DNA from: an uncultured Bdellovibrionales bacterium
GTDB taxonomy: Bacteria > Patescibacteriota > Minisyncoccia > Moranbacterales > UBA1568
Assembly: GCA_964561695.1 (NCBI GenBank)
Contig: CAZLQC010000005.1
Span: 1-35,309, forward strand
Direction: 5' to 3'
Length of the DNA: 35,309 bases
Position numbers and translations under genes: made by a program. The first letter of the stretch is position 1, and each line of letters opens with the position of its first letter. Under the pieces are notes generated by a model. That model saw only the letters and a program-made list of their open reading frames with translations. It did not search any database and was not told where the DNA came from. Positions 5,279 to 13,592 of this stretch are shown here, piece after piece.

Positions 5279-7774
5279 ATGAAAGAAAAAAAGGTCACCC
5301 CTCCAAAAAGTGCCCCAGGTGTACTGGCTCGCACTTTTCATGAAATTCTGATTGCCGACAAACGCTCTTATGAGCCGTTTGTTAAGGTATTTCGTGCAGA
5401 AGGAGAAAATGTCAGTAAACTTGATCTTGGTACCCTTGTAGGAGTGTTTGAGGTAGATGAAAAAGATGAAGATGCTGCCTATATTGTTAATTTTCTAGCC
5501 TCAGTAGCGAAGAAAGAGTATTTTAATAATCCGAGACGTGGTCCTATCGAAAGTTTCGAAGCAGCCCTCCACAAAGTCAACGTGGCTCTTGCTGAACTAG
5601 TAAAACATGGCAATGTCTCTTGGCTTGGTAAGCTACATGGGGTCTTGGCCGTCCTCGAAAAAAATAATCTCCATTTCTCTGTTACCGGTGAAGCCGCTCT
5701 GCTTCTTTTCCGTCAGGAACAATTTTCCGAAATAAGTGAGGGCCTGGCTTCAAGTGAAGCTTCTGTGCATCCACTAAAAACATTTGTGGAGGTCTCTAGC
5801 GGACGCCTCATGGAAGACGATAGTATTATCCTCTCCACACCAGAACTTCTCGCTCTTTTTCCTTTAGACTACCTCACCAAACAAGCTGTGCGTATGAACG
5901 CTCAGGCTTTTCGCCAGTTCCTCAGAACAGCCTTGGTCAACGAAATAGACATGGCCGCAGTCTTAGCTATTGAGCTCAGCGTTGCCAATCTTGAGGCCCC
6001 AGTCCCCTCCCTCAAAACAAAAAGTGGGTCTCGTCCCAAAAACCAGACCGTGGCCAACGCTTTCAGTCAGGCTACCTTTACTCCTGCCAAACCTCCTATC
6101 CCCCTTGATGATCCAGAACCCGCTCCTGTAGCAACTTCCCCAAGCAAGGAAGAGTTTATTGACGAAAAGACTGGTCATATTTATGTCCAGGGAGATGAGA
6201 TTGGCGATGGCTCCTCACTCAAACATTCAGTCATCCTGGAAAGTTTTCGTGAGGCGACTTCTCGTGTAGGCGAGTTCTTTTCACGAACTGTTCGCCGACA
6301 AGGCAAGAAAACTGCTCGTCTTGGCGCCTTTCTTCTCTGGGAGAGCCGTACCCAAACTGCTCGTCTTGCTCGTAAAGCTGCTCAAAAAATAAGCTCCCTC
6401 AAGGCCACCCTCGCTGAACAACAGAAAGCGAAAGCTCTACAACAAGTACGACAAATGGAAAAGAAGGTTCGTCAGGAAACAAAGCGCCAGGCTGAAGCCT
6501 TGGTAGAACCAGAAATAATAGCCGACGAAATAACCCTTCCAATCCAAGTGACAATACCTCCAGAAGCAGTAGGAGAAACTATTTCTGAATCTTCTCTAGA
6601 GAGAGTAGCTACTATAGAAGAAAGCGTTGTTCCTAGTCATATTGAGCGTTTTCGCTCACTCTATCAGTCAAAACCTCCTTCTACCATAGCCCCTCCAGTT
6701 TCCCCAACAAAAACCCCCAAGACCCCTCTCCAAAAAAATTCTACCCAAAAAGATACCTCTGTTCGTCTTGATACGTGGAAACATTCTTTTGAAAAATGGC
6801 GTAGCACTACCTCTTCTTCTCTCAAGACCTTCTCTCAAGTCATCCTCAAACAAAAAAAGATTATCCTTATCTCTTTTGGTGGACTTGTCATAGTGAGTGG
6901 ATTGGGCTTTCTATTTTTACACTTCAAAACAAACCCTCAAGCAAGCAAGCCCGAGATTCCTTCACCAATCACCTCTGCCCCAGCGCCTACAACACTCGAA
7001 ACCAACTCTCTTCAGGCCGAATCTACTCTTACCCTCAATAAAGAACTTGTTGCCCTCGTCTTTCTTGAGAATCAAGGCTATGGGGCTACCGCCAAAAGCA
7101 TTGTGGCTCTCGATAGCAAAGAAGAGTTCATTGTCCCTGACATCAAGGGTGAGATCCGCTTCTTGGCTCCTATGAAAGACTTGCGTCTCATCTTTGTCCT
7201 CACCAGTCAAAATGAACTTTTTGCTTGGAGCCCTCTTGCTAAAACCTTTACCAAAAATGAGCTTGTCTTGCCAGAAAATGCTCGCGTAACAGGTATTGGA
7301 AGCTACCTCACCTATCTCTACGTACTTGATCGTGGCAATAATCAGCTTTACCGCTACCCGCGATCAACACTTGGCTTTACGGAATCTACCAACTGGATGA
7401 AAGAATCTTTTGAACTGACCGATACTGCTTTCTTGGCTATCAACGAAACGGTAGCTCTTGCCCCTTCTCGTGAACACTTGCTCTCTTTTTCACAAGGCAA
7501 AAATACTGGTACCTTCAGTCAAAGCAAGACCGAAGAGGATATGATTTTTATCCAGGCACTGACTACGGACAGTGACTTTCCTTTTATTTATGCTTTGGAT
7601 GACAAGAACATTCTCTCTATTTGGAGTCTTGAGCGCAAACTGCTCCATACCTATACACTCAAAGACGCTCCGAAAGAGGCAACCTATCTCGCCTCAGATC
7701 CCGAAAAGAAGGTCCTTATCCTTGGCAACAAAGATGGCAACGTCACTCGCTATACCAACGTCACCAGCGAATAA
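5279..7774 (+). CDS. Large bitopic membrane protein (831 aa), unknown function
   Basis: Cytoplasmic alpha/beta N-domain, a Pro-rich and Lys/Gln-rich helical linker, one TM (about 6859-6927, IILISFGGLVIVSGLGFLFLHF) and a C-terminal beta-rich domain of about 270 aa. That domain has blade-like motifs (LYVLDRGNNQLYRY, IYALDDKNILSIWS, LILGNKDGNVTRY). Confidence 0.6.
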   Translation: MKEKKVTPPKSAPGVLARTFHEILIADKRSYEPFVKVFRAEGENVSKLDLGTLVGVFEVDEKDEDAAYIVNFLASVAKKEYFNNPRRGPIESFEAALHKVNVALAELVKHGNVSWLGKLHGVLAVLEKNNLHFSVTGEAALLLFRQEQFSEISEGLASSEASVHPLKTFVEVSSGRLMEDDSIILSTPELLALFPLDYLTKQAVRMNAQAFRQFLRTALVNEIDMAAVLAIELSVANLEAPVPSLKTKSGSRPKNQTVANAFSQATFTPAKPPIPLDDPEPAPVATSPSKEEFIDEKTGHIYVQGDEIGDGSSLKHSVILESFREATSRVGEFFSRTVRRQGKKTARLGAFLLWESRTQTARLARKAAQKISSLKATLAEQQKAKALQQVRQMEKKVRQETKRQAEALVEPEIIADEITLPIQVTIPPEAVGETISESSLERVATIEESVVPSHIERFRSLYQSKPPSTIAPPVSPTKTPKTPLQKNSTQKDTSVRLDTWKHSFEKWRSTTSSSLKTFSQVILKQKKIILISFGGLVIVSGLGFLFLHFKTNPQASKPEIPSPITSAPAPTTLETNSLQAESTLTLNKELVALVFLENQGYGATAKSIVALDSKEEFIVPDIKGEIRFLAPMKDLRLIFVLTSQNELFAWSPLAKTFTKNELVLPENARVTGIGSYLTYLYVLDRGNNQLYRYPRSTLGFTESTNWMKESFELTDTAFLAINETVALAPSREHLLSFSQGKNTGTFSQSKTEEDMIFIQALTTDSDFPFIYALDDKNILSIWSLERKLLHTYTLKDAPKEATYLASDPEKKVLILGNKDGNVTRYTNVTSE

Positions 7775-7778
7775 CTAC

Positions 7779-10700
7779 TTATCTAGCAATAACAGCTCCT
7801 GCCCCAGGAATCTTCTTGAAAAGAATGTACTTATTTCTTCCCGTGCGAATACGTACAAAACCTCTATCAACAATGGTTTCTTTTGGAATCTCCTGAACTG
7901 AACCGTGAACGGTTTTGAGAACTTCCACTTCTTGGAATATGCTTGCCTCTTCTCTGGCGAGTACCTCATCATCCCCATTGAGCTCGATTCTCATTTCTCT
8001 TTCACCCAAAGTGAAATGAGAAAGTACTTTTCTAGAATCTTTGAGTGAAACGTCTGTACGCTGAAGCTTAAACCCATCTAGATCCTCTTTCGAGAGGTTA
8101 TCTAATACTTCTGTCACTGTTTCTGGCGTAGTTTCATTTTTTTCAAAAGTCACCATACGCGAGCGATACCCATTGCCACTAGAAATTTCTCCTGAGTACT
8201 CATTTACTACATCTAGACCAAACTGCTTGGCAATAGTAGTGAGTGTATTTGTGTCACGAAAATCAAGTGAATAAATCATATTGACCACAGCTCTTCCACC
8301 AGACTTCAAAACTCGACTCATTTCTTTCAAGGCTTCCAGACGCTCATATTCCCCTTTACTTGGCACTAGCTTGGTATAATGAAGAGCTAGTGAGAGATTA
8401 ACATAGTCTACACTCCCACTTTCAAGCGGAATATCAGTGAAGCTCCCAACAATGGTCTCACTTTCTGGCGTTTTGTTAGCAAAGTGCTCTGGGTTGATAT
8501 CAAGACTGATGATATTGGAGCGCAAAGTATCTTTACTGTGCCTACGGAGCATTTCAGGTCCAGAAGCCAGATCTAGAATGCGCGGATTCTCTATTCCTTG
8601 TTTATTGGCCATTTCTGAAAGCACCGTTGCTACCACTCGACTAGCATTACTCTGATAACTCCTGCTTCCTAATTCACGGTAACAGTCCGCATACTCTGCA
8701 CCATGTTTCTCCAAAAAAGTACTAAATTTCTTCTCGCCAATTTCTTTGACTGAAGCAAAGATGCGATTCATCTTTTCGAATGAAGAAAAATAGTAATCAG
8801 CCAGTTCTGGATTAACTGACAGATCAGCTTTTTCGGCTTCTTCAGACTTTTCTAAAATCTCCATTTCCACTTCGGTAATTGGAATACCTTTGAGAAGTTT
8901 TTCGATAGCTCGGTGCTTGACTTGGATGTACTCATGTTTTCCTTCTTCGATAGTACCTTTGGTGAGAATAGTTCGTGATTCTACATCACCTTCGATACCG
9001 GGGCGGTAGACACGAGCCTGTTGCTGGTGCTTATCAGCTATAGTCCAGGGCTCATTATAAAAAATAATTTCCTGTCCTGCTGAATAGTCCACTGCCACAT
9101 CAGCAGTCTTACCACTCACTACAAGAAGTATTCGTTTATCACCTCTCTGAAACTCTTCCTGGACAGTCAGGCGCTCTTCTTGGGTAACACCTCCATGAAT
9201 GACTCTAACTTCTACCCCAGCTGGTAATTTGAGGTCTTGGATAATACCATCTTCTCCTCGGATAACATTAGAGATATAGTCGTTCACAAAAAGCACAGCT
9301 CTATCTTTGCTCACGAAAGCATTTTTCAAATCGTTATTGAGCATTTCCAGCTTACTACTTGGTACTCCAGGAGTAATATCCAAAAGTCTTGGGTTAAGCA
9401 AAAACTTTTGAAGCATTTGCATCTTTTCAGTTGGAGTAAGTTCATCCTCATCAAGCAACACCTGATAGATTTCTTCTTCACTTGGAGTAAGTTCAACTGA
9501 GCTTACTTGTTCGGTAAGGTTTGGCATTTCTAAGTGTTCGCCCAAACTCTTCATCTGGAGACGTGGGATGAGAAGCTGGCGAATATCCAGTAAGTCTCCA
9601 TGGATAATAGAGCGGGTCAAAGTGCGACTATCCGTCTCGGCAAAACGCTCTGGATACATGAGTTTTAAGAGCATGGCTACATCTTCTACCTTATTCGGTA
9701 CTGGAGTACCAGAAAGCATGGCAACATATTTTTCGTCCCTTTCTTTATTATCAGCAAGGCGGAGTAAGTGTTCCGAGCGTACACCAGTTTCTATATTCTT
9801 AAATTTATGGACTTCATCAACAATAAGCATCCCGTAATCTAAAGTCTCAAGTGCTTGTGTATATTCAGCAGTCAGACGTTCATGAGAGATAATAATGTAA
9901 TCATATAGACCTTTTTCTATACCATCCAACTGACTTACATCAGTGATCCGTAGTACTCTTGGCTCTTTCTTGAAATACCCCACCTGTTTACTATTTTCAT
10001 CTATCTTATCTGATAAATACCCCTGCCAAGTGTCTATTGCATTACTTGGTACTACTACTAAGGCTGTCTCTACACCAAGGTGTTCTTTAGCCAGAATAGC
10101 TGAAGCGCTCTTACCTGCCCCCATTTCATCAGCTATGAGAACCCGTTTCTTGGCTTCAATTTCTCGAATATTTATACGCTGATAGATATCAGGAAATTCT
10201 CGCCCTTCTTTGAGGCCATCTACCATTCCTACTGGTACCTCTACGCTCAAGATAGAGATATAGAACTTTTCAACACTTAAAATAGTCTGCATTAGCTCTG
10301 CGCTCGCAATATTTTGAGCTTCTGTACGCAGATTGTTGAAATAGTCTCGAAAGAGAGCTATGTTCTGTTCGATACCTAATTCTCTCTTAGATAGCGTCTT
10401 CTCCAAAGCATCTCTTTTAATCACCTCAGCCAGTCCTTCCATCAAACTTGGTGTGCCAAAGAGAGCTTCAGCTCCCTTGAGACTCTCTACAGAAAATGGT
10501 GCTGGGGTGAGTAGATAATCTCCTAGATACTCTGCTAGGATACTTTTCACTTTTTCTACTGGTATCCCCTGATACTCCGGATGGAGAGCATAGAGGATAT
10601 CGAGAGATTGAGAGGATCCAAAAAGAGAGATAAGATTTTGTATTCCTTTTAAGTCTTCTTTATTCTGAAACCTATTTTCTAATCTCTCTTTCAAAACTAA

Positions 10701-13592
10701 CTCACTGTTATTAACTTTCTCATCAAGAACTTGTTTTATTTGAGTTATAAGATCTGGATGGTAATGAACTACTATCTTTCTTGTTCCATCAAGATAGTCC
10801 CGAAACCACTCTGGATATGATTCTAGAGCCTGACTAGCTATATTTTTAATAACCCTTTCACTCGTTTCCAGCTTCTTGGCAACACCTAAATTTGTAAGCC
10901 ATCCTTCAGGCGCCATTGTAGGCCTTTCTGCTGCAATATCTTTTACTCTTTCTATAAGATCAGGATGATAGTGCTCAAAGATTTGACCTTTTTTGGATTG
11001 AAAATCTCGAAACCAATCTGGATGACTTTCTCTAAACTGATCGGCAATTTTTCTGAAGGCTGGCCTATTTAAGGATAAATGAGCAGCAGCAACTTCACTA
11101 GTCATCCAACCTACTGGGGCATATTCTGGTCTGTTGCTAATTTCTTCACGAATCTTCTCTATAAGATCAGGATGATAATACTCGTGTGATCTTCCAACTT
11201 TACTACTGTATACTTGAAACCACTCAGGGTGAGCGTCTCTAAATGAGTTTGCAATTTTTTCTGTCGTGTTTTGAGCTATTCCCAATTCATCTCCAGTTCT
11301 CCTATTTGTCATCCACCCTTCAGGAGCCTTATCAGCTCTAAGCGAAATTCTTTCTATTATTTTCTCTACTAAGTTGGGATGATAATGTGTAGAAACTTTC
11401 CTTGTTCCATCAAGATACTCCTGAAACCACTCAGGGTGAGCATCCTTAAACGGCTCAGCTATTTTTTTCACAAAAGCTTCTGCTGTCCCTAATGAATCAG
11501 CGATACCATTATTAGTTATCCACCCATCGGGTGCATACTCTGGTTTTTCAAAAAACTTCTTTTTAATTATCTGTATAAGGTCTGGATGACAATATTCACC
11601 AATATTATTATTCTTTGTAAGATACTCTCTGAACCACTCTGGGTGTGACTTTCGATATTGATCAGCAATTTCTTTACATGTGTGATGTGAACTATTTAAC
11701 TCTTGGGCTATTTCGCCAAAGGTACGCCACTCCACTGGCGGTTTTTCTGGTCTACGGGCAATCTCTTCTTGTATTTTGTGTACCAAGTCTGGGTGATAAT
11801 GCTCATTGACTCTTCCTGTTACAATTTCAAATTCCTGAAACCAGCCAGGTTGTGACTCTCGATATTGATCAGCGATTTTACTGCACGTTTGTTTACTTAT
11901 GTTAAGATCTTCAGCAATAGCACTGTTGGTAACCCATCCTTTCGGAGCTTTACTAGGTCTTTCAGAGAGTCCTTGTTGTATTTTTTCAACAAGGACTGGA
12001 TGATAATACTCAAAAACTTGGCTCTGTTTTGATTTGTATCCTTTAAACCACTCTGGATGAGTCTCTCGATACTGCTCAGCAATTTTTGCGCACACTTTAC
12101 TTTCTCGCCCCAGTTTCTTAGCAAGACCAGATAATGCTTCCCAGCCTTCTGGAACATATTCTGGCTCTTCAAGAAGCTTACCTCTAATTTGTTCTACAAG
12201 ATCTGTATGATAATGTTCTGTTGTTCTGCCTCCTCTATCCTGGTACTCTCCAAACCACTCGGGATGTGTTGCTCTATAAGAATTAACTAGGCTTTTAGTA
12301 AGATTAGTGCCTATACCAAGAACAGTAGCTACTGATATAGTAGTTAACCATCCTTCCGGAGCTTTATCAGGTCTATTGGCTAAAACTTCCCGGACTTTTT
12401 CAATGAGATCTGGATGGTGGTATTCTCTCAGAGAACCTGATCTGTCTTTGAACTCATGGAACCACTCGGGATGATTACTACGAAACGGCTCCACCACTTT
12501 TTTTACAAGGGTTTCACTTATCCCAAATTGACGGCTAGTAGCTACTTTAGTCATCCAACCATCAGGAGCATTCCTATGCTCAGCTCTTTGCTCTTTGATT
12601 TTAAGATTTTTCGTTGCAACTTCTTTTCTAGATTGCCTCAAGTTCTCGATATTTTGGAAAAGAACTGCTATAGCTTCAGGAGGGTAAAAAAGTACTGGGA
12701 CTCTGTACTGACCTTCAAACTTTTGCGGTATTTTAATTTCAGAATTACTAGAATACACATCTTTCAAAAGAAAACTCACGCGTGATAAACTTAGTCCTGC
12801 CTGTTGAGATAAATCTCTGATACTCATCCACCCCTCTGGAGGATACCCTACGCGTAATAAGGGATGTTGCTCTATTAACCGGACTAATTCCGGAGGGTAA
12901 TAGTAATGTCTTTTTCCCTCTGCAGAAATAAACTCTCTTGGAGAGAGATTCTTATCTTCTCGAAGAAAGTTTTTAATAAGAGGTCTAACTCGACTTTGGT
13001 TATTAACCGAAAGGCCTTTTTGAAGCTCACTCACACTTTTCCATCCTTCTGGAACTCCCTCACTAATCTTAACTCTATCAGGAAGGTGTGATTTAACGTA
13101 TTCCACAGCTTCATTAGAATGGTATTTTACCTTTATCCCTTTTATTAAAAGTTCCCTTGGAGAGTCAGCTGATTGAAAATCTTCATAATATTTCTTTAGA
13201 ATCTTACTGACAGTAGTGCGATCAAGCCCTAATTCTCTTGCTATAAGTCTAGTATTTTTTCTGTCTCCAATCTTAGATTCGTCACTCCTGAGTTTTTCAA
13301 TCTCGGAATTAATATATGAGACCACTTCAGGTGGATAATGTAAAAACTTTCTGCCTCTTACATCGCACATCCATTGCGGATCTTGTAATTCTTTATTTCC
13401 ATTATATAAGGCCTGGATCGCTTTCTCTACTGATCTTGTACTATTAACACCTTCAGTTAATTTAGCTACTGCTCTGAGAGTTAACCATCCTTCCTGAGCC
13501 TGTTCACTTTTTTCACCTTCAAAAGAAGCCCCTTCTGATGAACTGTTTTGTTCCGCTTTTTTAGGTTGTGGAATGTCTGGATTAAATGCCAT
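7779..13592 (-). CDS. Giant multidomain protein (1,937 aa): HTH-like repeat array + SNF2-family ATPase + class I SAM methyltransferase
   Basis: A single uninterrupted ORF with ATG at 13592-13590. SNF2 motifs: LIADEMGAGKS (I), IVDEVHKFKN (II), LSGTPVPNK (III), QQQARVYRPG (VI). Methyltransferase motifs: ILDLASGPE (motif I) and LKSGGRAVV (post-motif). See the sub-features below. Confidence 0.85.
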   Translation of the reverse strand: MAFNPDIPQPKKAEQNSSSEGASFEGEKSEQAQEGWLTLRAVAKLTEGVNSTRSVEKAIQALYNGNKELQDPQWMCDVRGRKFLHYPPEVVSYINSEIEKLRSDESKIGDRKNTRLIARELGLDRTTVSKILKKYYEDFQSADSPRELLIKGIKVKYHSNEAVEYVKSHLPDRVKISEGVPEGWKSVSELQKGLSVNNQSRVRPLIKNFLREDKNLSPREFISAEGKRHYYYPPELVRLIEQHPLLRVGYPPEGWMSIRDLSQQAGLSLSRVSFLLKDVYSSNSEIKIPQKFEGQYRVPVLFYPPEAIAVLFQNIENLRQSRKEVATKNLKIKEQRAEHRNAPDGWMTKVATSRQFGISETLVKKVVEPFRSNHPEWFHEFKDRSGSLREYHHPDLIEKVREVLANRPDKAPEGWLTTISVATVLGIGTNLTKSLVNSYRATHPEWFGEYQDRGGRTTEHYHTDLVEQIRGKLLEEPEYVPEGWEALSGLAKKLGRESKVCAKIAEQYRETHPEWFKGYKSKQSQVFEYYHPVLVEKIQQGLSERPSKAPKGWVTNSAIAEDLNISKQTCSKIADQYRESQPGWFQEFEIVTGRVNEHYHPDLVHKIQEEIARRPEKPPVEWRTFGEIAQELNSSHHTCKEIADQYRKSHPEWFREYLTKNNNIGEYCHPDLIQIIKKKFFEKPEYAPDGWITNNGIADSLGTAEAFVKKIAEPFKDAHPEWFQEYLDGTRKVSTHYHPNLVEKIIERISLRADKAPEGWMTNRRTGDELGIAQNTTEKIANSFRDAHPEWFQVYSSKVGRSHEYYHPDLIEKIREEISNRPEYAPVGWMTSEVAAAHLSLNRPAFRKIADQFRESHPDWFRDFQSKKGQIFEHYHPDLIERVKDIAAERPTMAPEGWLTNLGVAKKLETSERVIKNIASQALESYPEWFRDYLDGTRKIVVHYHPDLITQIKQVLDEKVNNSELVLKERLENRFQNKEDLKGIQNLISLFGSSQSLDILYALHPEYQGIPVEKVKSILAEYLGDYLLTPAPFSVESLKGAEALFGTPSLMEGLAEVIKRDALEKTLSKRELGIEQNIALFRDYFNNLRTEAQNIASAELMQTILSVEKFYISILSVEVPVGMVDGLKEGREFPDIYQRINIREIEAKKRVLIADEMGAGKSASAILAKEHLGVETALVVVPSNAIDTWQGYLSDKIDENSKQVGYFKKEPRVLRITDVSQLDGIEKGLYDYIIISHERLTAEYTQALETLDYGMLIVDEVHKFKNIETGVRSEHLLRLADNKERDEKYVAMLSGTPVPNKVEDVAMLLKLMYPERFAETDSRTLTRSIIHGDLLDIRQLLIPRLQMKSLGEHLEMPNLTEQVSSVELTPSEEEIYQVLLDEDELTPTEKMQMLQKFLLNPRLLDITPGVPSSKLEMLNNDLKNAFVSKDRAVLFVNDYISNVIRGEDGIIQDLKLPAGVEVRVIHGGVTQEERLTVQEEFQRGDKRILLVVSGKTADVAVDYSAGQEIIFYNEPWTIADKHQQQARVYRPGIEGDVESRTILTKGTIEEGKHEYIQVKHRAIEKLLKGIPITEVEMEILEKSEEAEKADLSVNPELADYYFSSFEKMNRIFASVKEIGEKKFSTFLEKHGAEYADCYRELGSRSYQSNASRVVATVLSEMANKQGIENPRILDLASGPEMLRRHSKDTLRSNIISLDINPEHFANKTPESETIVGSFTDIPLESGSVDYVNLSLALHYTKLVPSKGEYERLEALKEMSRVLKSGGRAVVNMIYSLDFRDTNTLTTIAKQFGLDVVNEYSGEISSGNGYRSRMVTFEKNETTPETVTEVLDNLSKEDLDGFKLQRTDVSLKDSRKVLSHFTLGEREMRIELNGDDEVLAREEASIFQEVEVLKTVHGSVQEIPKETIVDRGFVRIRTGRNKYILFKKIPGAGAVIAR
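8200..8700 (-). other. Class I SAM-dependent methyltransferase domain (Methyltransf_11-like) within the giant ORF
   Basis: Motif I ILDLASG at 8559-8579, then ISLDINP (acidic residue at the end of beta2), DYVNLSLALHY and LKSGGRAVVN. I saw no (D/N/S)PP(Y/F/W) motif. Confidence 0.7.
8958..10205 (-). other. SNF2 ATPase core (SNF2_N + helicase_C) within the giant ORF
   Basis: Walker A DEMGAGKS at 10107-10130, DEVH at 9807-9818, motif VI QQQARVYRPG at about 9001-9030. Confidence 0.85.
10704..13493 (-). repeat. Coding tandem repeat: about 13 HTH-like modules (nine canonical 69-aa / 207-nt units at 10704-12566, four degenerate units at 12567-13493)
   Basis: Canonical unit: P(E/D)GW.T....A..LG......KIA..(F/Y)R..HPEWF.(E/D)(Y/F)........EHYHPDL(I/V)E.I......P..A. 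The HPEWF codons recur about every 207 nt (about 10805, 11015, 11220, 11425, 11635, 11840, 12050, 12255, 12462). Degenerate N-terminal units carry YPPE in place of YHPDL. One has a classic HTH, LIARELGLDRTTVSKILKKY. Confidence 0.85.

Follow-up and report, generated by a model that had tools for sequence, protein, structure and literature searches.

Winged helix-turn-helix (wHTH) domains of the MerR/excisionase type contact DNA with their helix 2 and with a hairpin that forms the wing. They act as single, oligomerising domains, and the excisionase Xis of phage lambda builds a head-to-tail filament on DNA, which is assembled non-covalently and without fusion to a motor ATPase. In TraN of pIP501 (PDB entry 4pm3) two excisionase-like wHTH modules are arranged in tandem in one chain on double-stranded DNA (dsDNA), also without a motor ATPase. 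Here, we analyze a gene that encodes a predicted covalent array of 13 such domains fused to an SNF2-family ATPase and a methyltransferase. The gene is located on a stretch of 35,309 nucleotides (contig CAZLQC010000005.1 of assembly GCA_964561695.1; named uncultured Bdellovibrionales bacterium, assigned by GTDB to the Patescibacteriota), hereafter referred to as the window. It is a single uninterrupted open reading frame on the minus strand (7779..13592) that stays open for 5.8 kb and encodes 1937 amino acids (aa). The protein is arranged in the order wHTH array, linker, SNF2 ATPase, class-I methyltransferase and C-terminal tail. Only the C-terminal half is recognised by Pfam, while the first 963 residues show just short matches to generic HTH families, of which HTH_28 (residues 112-135) is the strongest.

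Several described systems share individual features with this protein. LOTUS/OST-HTH proteins and SelB likewise carry several winged helices per chain and are often linked with helicases or nucleases, but these arrays bind RNA or the Vasa helicase and the OST-HTH model (PF12872) is not listed for the window protein. Long arrays with a conserved scaffold and variable positions are also found in TALE, PUF, PPR and mTERF proteins. However, their repeats have a length of 33-36 aa, form a helical solenoid and read one base each, whereas the unit described here is predicted to be an autonomous α/β domain of 68-69 aa that would be expected to cover several base pairs (bp). As the unit is a globular domain and not a one-base solenoid repeat, the analogy to modular repeat binders, which was drawn in an original prediction made from the DNA letters alone, does not hold structurally for those of the TALE/PUF type. 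Giant proteins uniting SNF2 and methyltransferase domains are known from the DarB-like SNF2 and DNA-methylase dyads of phage and conjugative polyvalent proteins (Iyer et al., 2017; PMC5512222), and relevant to this comparison a VirD4-like ATPase gene is located directly upstream on the same strand at the window locus. Unlike in the DarB-like dyad, the methyltransferase of the window protein is of the Methyltransf_11 type and lacks the N6-adenine motif. Furthermore, tblastn against GenBank phages and PLSDB plasmids yielded zero matches, single-protein scans of IMG/VR yielded no close relative, a conserved neighbourhood is absent and the flanks are of housekeeping type. The retrieved passages of PMC5512222 describe the SNF2-methylase dyad and, for ATPases of the SnoC type, one wHTH at the C-terminus; in these passages an N-terminal wHTH array is not mentioned.

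The tandem repeat and its predicted fold

Nine canonical units of 69 aa (207 nt) occupy aa 343-963 (10704..12566, minus strand, as all parts of this gene), as delimited by unit spacing, repeat search, profile scores and AlphaFold2 models of units 6-8. They start with PxGW or PxEW at aa 343, 412, 481, 550, 619, 688, 757, 826 and 895, i.e., at nucleotides 12566, 12359, 12152, 11945, 11738, 11531, 11324, 11117 and 10910, and the spacing is exactly 69 aa throughout. They are preceded by four degenerate units, which were placed by alignment and by a profile built without window sequences: d1 (aa 34-110; 13263..13493; EGW...HYPPE; 20.8 bits), d2 (aa 111-180; 13053..13262; 16.8 bits), d3 (aa 181-251; 12840..13052; PEGW...YYPPE; 26.2 bits) and d4 (aa 252-342; 12567..12839; PEGW...FYPPE; 17.5 bits), the tail of the latter being longer by 22 aa. 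A polar N-terminal leader (aa 1-33; 13494..13592) lies outside the repeats and shows no match to the unit profile. The original prediction had counted nine canonical and four degenerate copies. An independent hidden Markov model (HMM), derived from 1125 units found in other proteins and zero window sequences, detects all 13 with scores of 72-90 bits for the canonical and 17-26 bits for the degenerate units, while 200 shuffles of the region reach 3.3 bits at most, so that the count is correct and far beyond chance. The motifs that had been quoted are present with the expected variants, i.e., PEGW/PDGW/PKGW/PVEW/PVGW at the unit start, HPEWF/QPGWF/HPDWF/YPEWF in the middle and YHPDL/YHTDL/YHPVL/YHPNL/CHPDL as third motif. 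The description of the degenerate units as carrying YPPE applies to three out of four (d1, d3 and d4); d2 also lacks the PEGW start and instead contains a classical HTH, LIARELGLDRTTVSKILKKY, which is matched by Pfam HTH_28 at 112-135.

The units are strongly diverged from each other. Pairwise identities among the canonical units are 28-49% (mean 39%) at the protein level, where a by-eye estimate had given 35-50%, and 44-59% (mean 54%) at the DNA level. The identity by codon position is 0.57/0.62/0.42, i.e., the third position is most diverged, and the same codon is used at just 52% of the identical residues. The 207-nt spacing was recovered at the DNA level by a repeat search (8 copies), and it was not detected by Tandem Repeats Finder on the window, as expected for units with only 54% DNA identity. 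The longest exact DNA word common to two units is 20 nt. Collapse or expansion of the array during assembly is therefore very unlikely and the copy number stands. The high divergence, together with the collinear order of units in orthologous protein pairs (see below), supports the earlier view that the array is probably old and selectively maintained rather than the product of a recent duplication.

AlphaFold2 models were calculated for three consecutive units (units 6-8; alignment of 43 three-unit segments), with a mean predicted local distance difference test (pLDDT) value of 95.3 and a predicted template modelling (pTM) score of 0.76, and for a single unit (95 aligned units; pLDDT 86.8). 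According to DSSP, the modelled unit consists of a short strand (5-6; W-x-T) and helix 1 (7-14), followed after a G-x-S turn by helix 2 (18-31) and after another short turn, at HPEW, by a β-hairpin (36-40/46-50) and helix 3 (52-64), of which the conserved P of YHPDL is the first residue. Judging by the high pTM of the three-unit model, adjacent units may adopt a defined arrangement relative to each other. In Foldseek searches of the PDB with the single unit, the top matches are all wHTH DNA binders. The RacA-DNA complex 5i44 gives the best match in both directions (probability 0.99, TM-scores 0.57/0.57), and further matches include the Xis proteins 4j2n and 2kvv (probabilities 0.80-0.87) and many wHTH domains of the MarR/ArsR type. 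Predicted viral structures in BFVD are matched with probabilities of ~1.0 and TM-scores of up to 0.68, the top matches being annotated as excisionase, PrtN, MerR-like HTH, antirepressor and HTH protein. The three-unit model shows poor global matches in the PDB, the best of which (probability 0.91) is TraN of pIP501, a dsDNA-binding protein with two excisionase-like wHTH domains. The same predicted topology is shared by the MerR/excisionase wHTH domains as a group (RacA N-domain 5i44, Tn916 Xis 1y6u, Pukovnik Xis 4j2n, PrtN/AlpA, HTH_17 and MerR), which account for the best Foldseek probabilities and two-way TM-scores. The fold assignment rests on the consistency of these matches and not on any single score. 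The unit is thereby confidently predicted to be a wHTH of MerR/excisionase type, and the HTH-type unit of the original prediction is borne out by the confident wHTH topology and by good Foldseek matches that are all wHTH nucleic-acid binders.

Column statistics over 1137 aligned units revealed conservation of P1 (100%), G3, W4 (98%), T6, L10, L14, I/V21, A25, Y28, R29, H/N32, P33, E34, W35, F36, Y39, G44, E48, H/Y49, Y50, P52 (93%), L54, V/I55 and I58, which are mostly core, turn and junction residues. K/R residues are enriched at positions 22, 23, 27 and 29 of helix 2 and at 37, 40, 42 and 45 of the hairpin, and the entropy is highest at the start of helix 2 (its first two positions, 18 and 19) and at the hairpin positions 38, 43, 46 and 47. 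The per-column comparison that had been proposed thus places both the most variable and the K/R-rich columns on recognition helix and wing. The variability is spread over ~12 columns and a simple hypervariable di-residue code is not visible. Units are 34% identical within one protein versus 29% between proteins, and neighbouring units hardly resemble each other more than distant ones do, so that there is no sign of ongoing homogenisation. Two pairs of orthologous relatives have collinear units, P0001/P0033 with 59% identity on the diagonal versus 30% in the background (15 units) and P0040/P0009 with 47% versus 35% (9 units). In these two pairs (24 unit pairs, window protein absent), the excess of orthologue over paralogue identity is 0.36 for the hairpin, 0.27 for helix 2 and, as the smallest value, 0.17 for helix 3. 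In this small sample of 24 pairs from outside the window, the difference points to a possible unit-specific constraint on the variable surface of the units.

At the level of sequence, the canonical unit has no above-threshold model in Pfam, NCBIfam, PHROGs or PADLOC, in agreement with its having been called unrecognised, and comparison of the unit profile with PDB sequences gave nothing significant. In the Pfam scan of the whole protein, HTH_28 reaches 33 bits (cut-off 25; stretch 112-135 in unit d2), HTH_24 30.6 bits (cut-off 21.9) and HTH_23 27.7 bits (cut-off 24.6). When segments were scanned alone, the canonical array stayed below the cut-off for all three families and d2 scored 20.8 bits for HTH_28 and 23.6 bits for HTH_24. 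The HTH_17, MerR and Tn916-Xis families do not appear among the matches of the window protein at E <= 1; HTH_17 reaches just 17.5 bits (cut-off 27) in the relative P0001. OST-HTH is sub-threshold in the relative P0002 (19.8 bits, cut-off 23.8), and PF12872 is among the precomputed domains of P0027. A match of phrog_6443 to the protein turned out to be a sum of weak stretches, as single units match nothing, and the precomputed Pfam labels on relatives, PF26109 (WHD_BrxR) and PF26137 (Toxin_SdpC), are faint. Full-text literature searches revealed no earlier description of the unit motifs, nor of tandem winged-helix arrays in SNF2 proteins or in the Candidate Phyla Radiation (CPR). Unlike MerR/excisionase domains, the unit thus has its own motifs, PEGW, HPEWF and YHPxL, and lacks significant sequence or profile similarity, i.e., it cannot be filed in any sequence family although its predicted fold is of the MerR/excisionase type.

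Fused enzymes and the family of array proteins

The array is followed by a linker or pre-motor region (aa 964-1136; 10185..10703), delimited by tblastn and without a Pfam-family match, which is conserved in orthologues of the SNF2-methyltransferase part, also in those with other N-terminal repeats (tblastn matches begin at query positions 958-987). The SNF2-family ATPase (aa 1137-1590; 8823..10184) matches Pfam SNF2-related (PF00176; SNF2-rel_dom) with 63.4 bits at residues 1149-1386 (cut-off 24.9) and Helicase_C (PF00271) with 39.5 bits at residues 1427-1532 (cut-off 23.5). Further support comes from phrog_62 (1e-46) and from the SsoRad54-like PDB entry 1z63 (6.6e-12). With the N lobe, the Helicase_C lobe, an intact Walker A GKS at 1160 and a DExH box (DEVH at 1259), it can be placed in the SNF2 family by its sequence. 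The putative class-I S-adenosylmethionine (SAM) methyltransferase (~aa 1652-1800; 8193..8639) matches Methyltransf_11 with 40.4 bits at residues 1673-1769 and has the SAM-binding motif I ILDLASG at 1672. It also matches Methyltransf_25, while Methyltransf_8 (Rrp8-type) is weak and below threshold and BioC/UbiE-like models are sub-threshold. Its sole match among PDB sequences is a sterol methyltransferase (E = 0.033). The models that match are of the small-molecule or RNA type alone, and to call it a DNA methyltransferase appears unjustified. A weak match of PADLOC mad2 (E 1.8e-4) covers the fused methyltransferase (7779-8840, aa 1585-1937). The C-terminal tail (aa 1801-1937 plus stop codon; 7779..8192) shows no family match in Pfam or PDB-sequence searches.

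A word-indexed homology search with the 13-unit alignment returned no relatives, whereas the N-terminal 1010 aa used as a single query yielded 30, which contain 4-16 units each according to a local unit HMM. When 1.84 billion representative proteins were searched exhaustively by HMMER with a profile of 95 units, 939 family members were obtained at E <= 0.001, of which 589 remained at 1e-10 and 342 at 1e-30, i.e., a family of ~940 clusters at 50% identity. Compared to the single domains of MerR and excisionase proteins, these are covalent arrays. Their start-to-start spacing is narrow and peaks at 68 aa (296 cases) and 69 aa (161 cases). Architectures were analyzed in a sample of 168 proteins in hand, the window protein included. 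In 33 of them the array precedes ~990 aa with SNF2 and methyltransferase, the latter being present in all 28 complete ones. In 30 proteins a ~515-aa ResIII/DEAD/Helicase_C motor, which most resembles PbeA and the restriction helicases of types IV and I, is followed by the array, which extends to the last residue. The commonest partner (56/168; P0034, P0016, P0010 and 53 others) is an uncharacterised domain of ~245 aa located N-terminal to the array, which has no match in Pfam, PHROG, PADLOC or PDB sequences and is marked by invariant G, R, G, R, Y, N and K residues and the motif LVNDEEGNATF. The remaining 49 proteins consist of the array alone and many are probably cut by contig ends. The family search that had been proposed thus revealed a copy number varying from 4 to 16 and other fusion partners, with two ATPases of the superfamily 2 (SF2) DNA-translocase type among the partners overall.

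Full-length relatives with a named organism come from Candidatus Taylorbacteria and Saccharibacteria, and the SNF2-methyltransferase core is also found in Vogelbacteria, Absconditabacterales and Peribacteria. These organism-naming records suggest that the family lies in the CPR. A restriction to the CPR is not proven, because the relative P0002 sits among CPR-unusual genes (RnfD-like, ApbE). The window's own genes (DUF5663, MurD, MreB, PMT_2) fit a CPR genome. In a scan of metagenomes, no match exceeded 46% identity. In IMG/VR, a degenerate DNA pattern (WF...YHPDL) gave at least 120 matches; among those listed none fits the unit HMM in six-frame translation, and they were discarded as chance, which does not prove that the family is absent from viruses.

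The orthologues of the SNF2-methyltransferase part in other CPR lineages align to the window protein only from residue ~960-990 onward. Their N-terminal repeats are different, e.g., ~60-aa W-rich repeats in a metagenome-assembled genome (MAG) of Vogelbacteria and about nine repeats of ~100 aa in a Peribacteria MAG. At locus L006 two ~60-aa repeats, 'LTFEELKIEVREAG...PEWKKW...PWDEFLG', replace the PEGW units. Such alternative repeats lie ~1-3 kb upstream of position 10001 at the loci L005, L007 and L010, and upstream of ~7617 at L006. The N-terminal arm of the SNF2-methyltransferase motor looks like an exchangeable repeat module, which would fit a role in targeting or tethering without proving it. 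In P0097, a member with ResIII-type helicase, the PEGW array is followed within residues 860-1185 by four copies of a second repeat of ~80 aa, 'DF.IT...L...F.G...KL...A..IL.EEM.KN....KK.NK.G..V.V.TD.EWFI..M.E.G'. Another variant is present at locus L017 (3183-8455; GCA_031401615.1, JANNRS010000036.1), where an array-only gene with 8 units (P0012) is separated by a gap of ~700 nt from a separate 965-aa SNF2 gene; together with DAGK and a YafQ-toxin-like gene, these lie between rplB and rpsS in the S10 operon of ribosomal proteins. The arrangement looks like an inserted cassette or a split form of the fusion.

Proposed function of the array and competing explanations

The explanation we favour, with a probability of roughly 0.5, is that the array constitutes a long and fairly rigid DNA-binding arm of excisionase-like wHTH domains that tethers or targets an SF2 translocase. 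In this model, the region encodes 13 small MerR/excisionase-type domains linked covalently head to tail, each of which would present its recognition helix 2 and its β-hairpin wing to dsDNA. The invariant A-P-E-G-W junction and the fixed unit length would keep neighbours in a fixed geometry, as indicated by the narrow spacing mode of 68-69 aa and by the invariant P1 and nearly invariant W4 at the junction. With its units held in this way, the array would lie along many consecutive DNA turns as a single-chain counterpart of the lambda Xis filament or of the two-domain TraN. The arm would tether or target the SNF2 translocase that follows it and, in sister proteins, the ResIII-type helicase or the ~245-aa domain, and the variable residues at the helix start and in the wing would give the units different site preferences. 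In favour of this model counts that the partners include SF2 ATPases of the dsDNA-translocase type, i.e., SNF2 in 33/168 and ResIII/HsdR-like motors in 30/168.

Several observations weigh against it. All Pfam HTH matches on the canonical units are sub-threshold and the units lack a significant match to any DNA-binding family. In hhalign comparisons the unit profile is not significant, with probabilities of 5% for Tn916 Xis (1y6u) and 0.5% for lambda Xis (1pm6), although the alignment with Tn916 Xis runs in the expected register. The Foldseek E-values are weak, 0.008 or higher, which is attributable to the small size of the domain (69-residue query). The canonical units are slightly acidic (pI 6.4, net charge of -4 to +2 per unit), and the family-wide mean net charge of just +0.6 per unit does not fit a simple electrostatic DNA binder. 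The window units have no one-to-one match to the units of the nearest relatives, in which the motor is just ~40% identical. A reiterated DNA target of the kind that the original prediction had considered was not found in the 35-kb window, nor was a reiterated intergenic motif. Finally, the whole protein lacks a (D/N/S)PP(Y/F/W), PCQ or ENV motif and its methyltransferase is not of the DNA-methylase type. The earlier proposal that the array guides the fused methyltransferase is hence not established in the sense of a DNA methyltransferase, as the enzyme is a generic class-I SAM enzyme without a DNA-methylase catalytic motif.

More far-reaching is the idea that the arrays form a natural, evolvable DNA-addressing system, in which each unit would read one short DNA word via its hypervariable helix-start and wing residues and the order of units would spell a composite address of ~100 bp or more for 13 units, positioning the SNF2 motor, the restriction-type helicase or another effector on CPR or invader genomes. 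The unrelated N-terminal repeats of the SNF2-methyltransferase orthologues would then be alternative solutions to the same problem. We consider this improbable, and a TALE-like programmable code, a special case of the DNA-binding arm, fares no better, given that each unit makes up an entire domain, unlike a solenoid repeat that reads a single base, and that a simple code is not visible.

Among the explanations that do not involve DNA as ligand, it is doubtful that the array merely serves as a rigid spacer, ruler or protein-interaction scaffold of winged-helix fold, the copy number of which would set reach or valency. The nearly neutral net charge, slightly negative in the window and +0.6 per unit as family mean, would agree with such a role, as would the conserved columns, which are mostly aromatic, proline or hydrophobic and thus structural, the freely varying copy number of 4-16 and the missing positional orthology of the window units to those of the nearest relatives; the unrelated N-terminal arrays of the SNF2-methyltransferase orthologues fit a structural role as well as they fit swapped targeting modules. 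However, the K/R enrichment falls precisely on the canonical DNA-contact elements, the wings are conserved in a unit-specific manner between orthologues and the arrays are consistently fused to nucleic-acid motors, which speaks against such a role. As another alternative, the ligand might be structured RNA, as for the four tandem winged helices of SelB or for LOTUS/OST-HTH arrays, and the array would bring helicase and methyltransferase to RNA, e.g., rRNA. To this end one can cite the match to Methyltransf_11 and the weak one to the Rrp8-type rRNA methyltransferase family Methyltransf_8 in a protein devoid of DNA-methylase motifs, the sub-threshold OST-HTH matches in P0002 and P0027, the one relative within a ribosomal-protein operon and the DEAD/ResIII helicase of the sister architecture. 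We regard RNA binding as unlikely, since SNF2 enzymes are established as dsDNA translocases (Iyer et al., 2017; PMC5512222), the ResIII-type partner is closest to type I/IV restriction motors and PbeA, the best fold matches are dsDNA binders and the Methyltransf_8 match is below threshold. The chance that the repeat is an assembly artefact or a fortuitous pattern is negligible: the exact gene product is absent from the public gene index, which leaves precisely this gene without a second, independent assembly, but its units share at most 20 identical nt at 54% DNA identity, the frame is open over its full 5.8 kb, all 13 units are found by independent profiles and hundreds of independent proteins carry such arrays.

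Genomic surroundings and implications

The array gene is the last of five co-directional genes on the minus strand. The first of these encodes a protein of 1061 aa with one hydrophobic segment (20073-16888) and is followed by a DUF5663 gene (16891-16574), a 129-aa gene (16546-16157) and, directly upstream and ending 68 nt before the array gene, a gene for a VirD4/TraG-like ATPase of 831 aa (16156-13661). On the plus strand, another gene of 831 aa with one hydrophobic segment (5279-7774) converges on the 3' end of the array gene. Neither this nor the 1061-aa gene has a match in Pfam, NCBIfam, PHROGs or PADLOC. The VirD4/TraG-like ATPase has an N-terminal membrane segment, matches phrog_5156 (unknown function; 2e-78) and PADLOC mad8 (9e-12), and has relatives of ~21% identity in large Bacillus phages (phage G gp156, SP-10). 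None of the window neighbours, including this ATPase, recurs beside the relatives in 16 homologue loci, and the loci of the relatives sit among ordinary housekeeping genes. tRNA genes and Rfam matches are absent from the window. Apart from the VirD4-like neighbour and the one relative inside a ribosomal-protein operon, nothing points to a mobile element, a defence island or a conserved operon.

Taken together, the fold is familiar while its use appears to be new, i.e., a tandem-array family of known fold for which neither a curated model nor a paper was found. According to the models, up to 16 rigidly joined excisionase-like winged helices would be placed at the ends of DNA-motor enzymes within a single polypeptide. 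The unit merits a family model of its own, by which thousands of residues now labelled 'hypothetical' would be recognised. Every source record that names an organism points to the CPR, mostly uncultivated ultra-small bacteria with largely unexplained large proteins. Should the predicted DNA binding hold true, the arrays would provide a new scaffold for long-footprint DNA recognition and would show how reduced genomes target SNF2-type remodelling and the associated methyltransferase.

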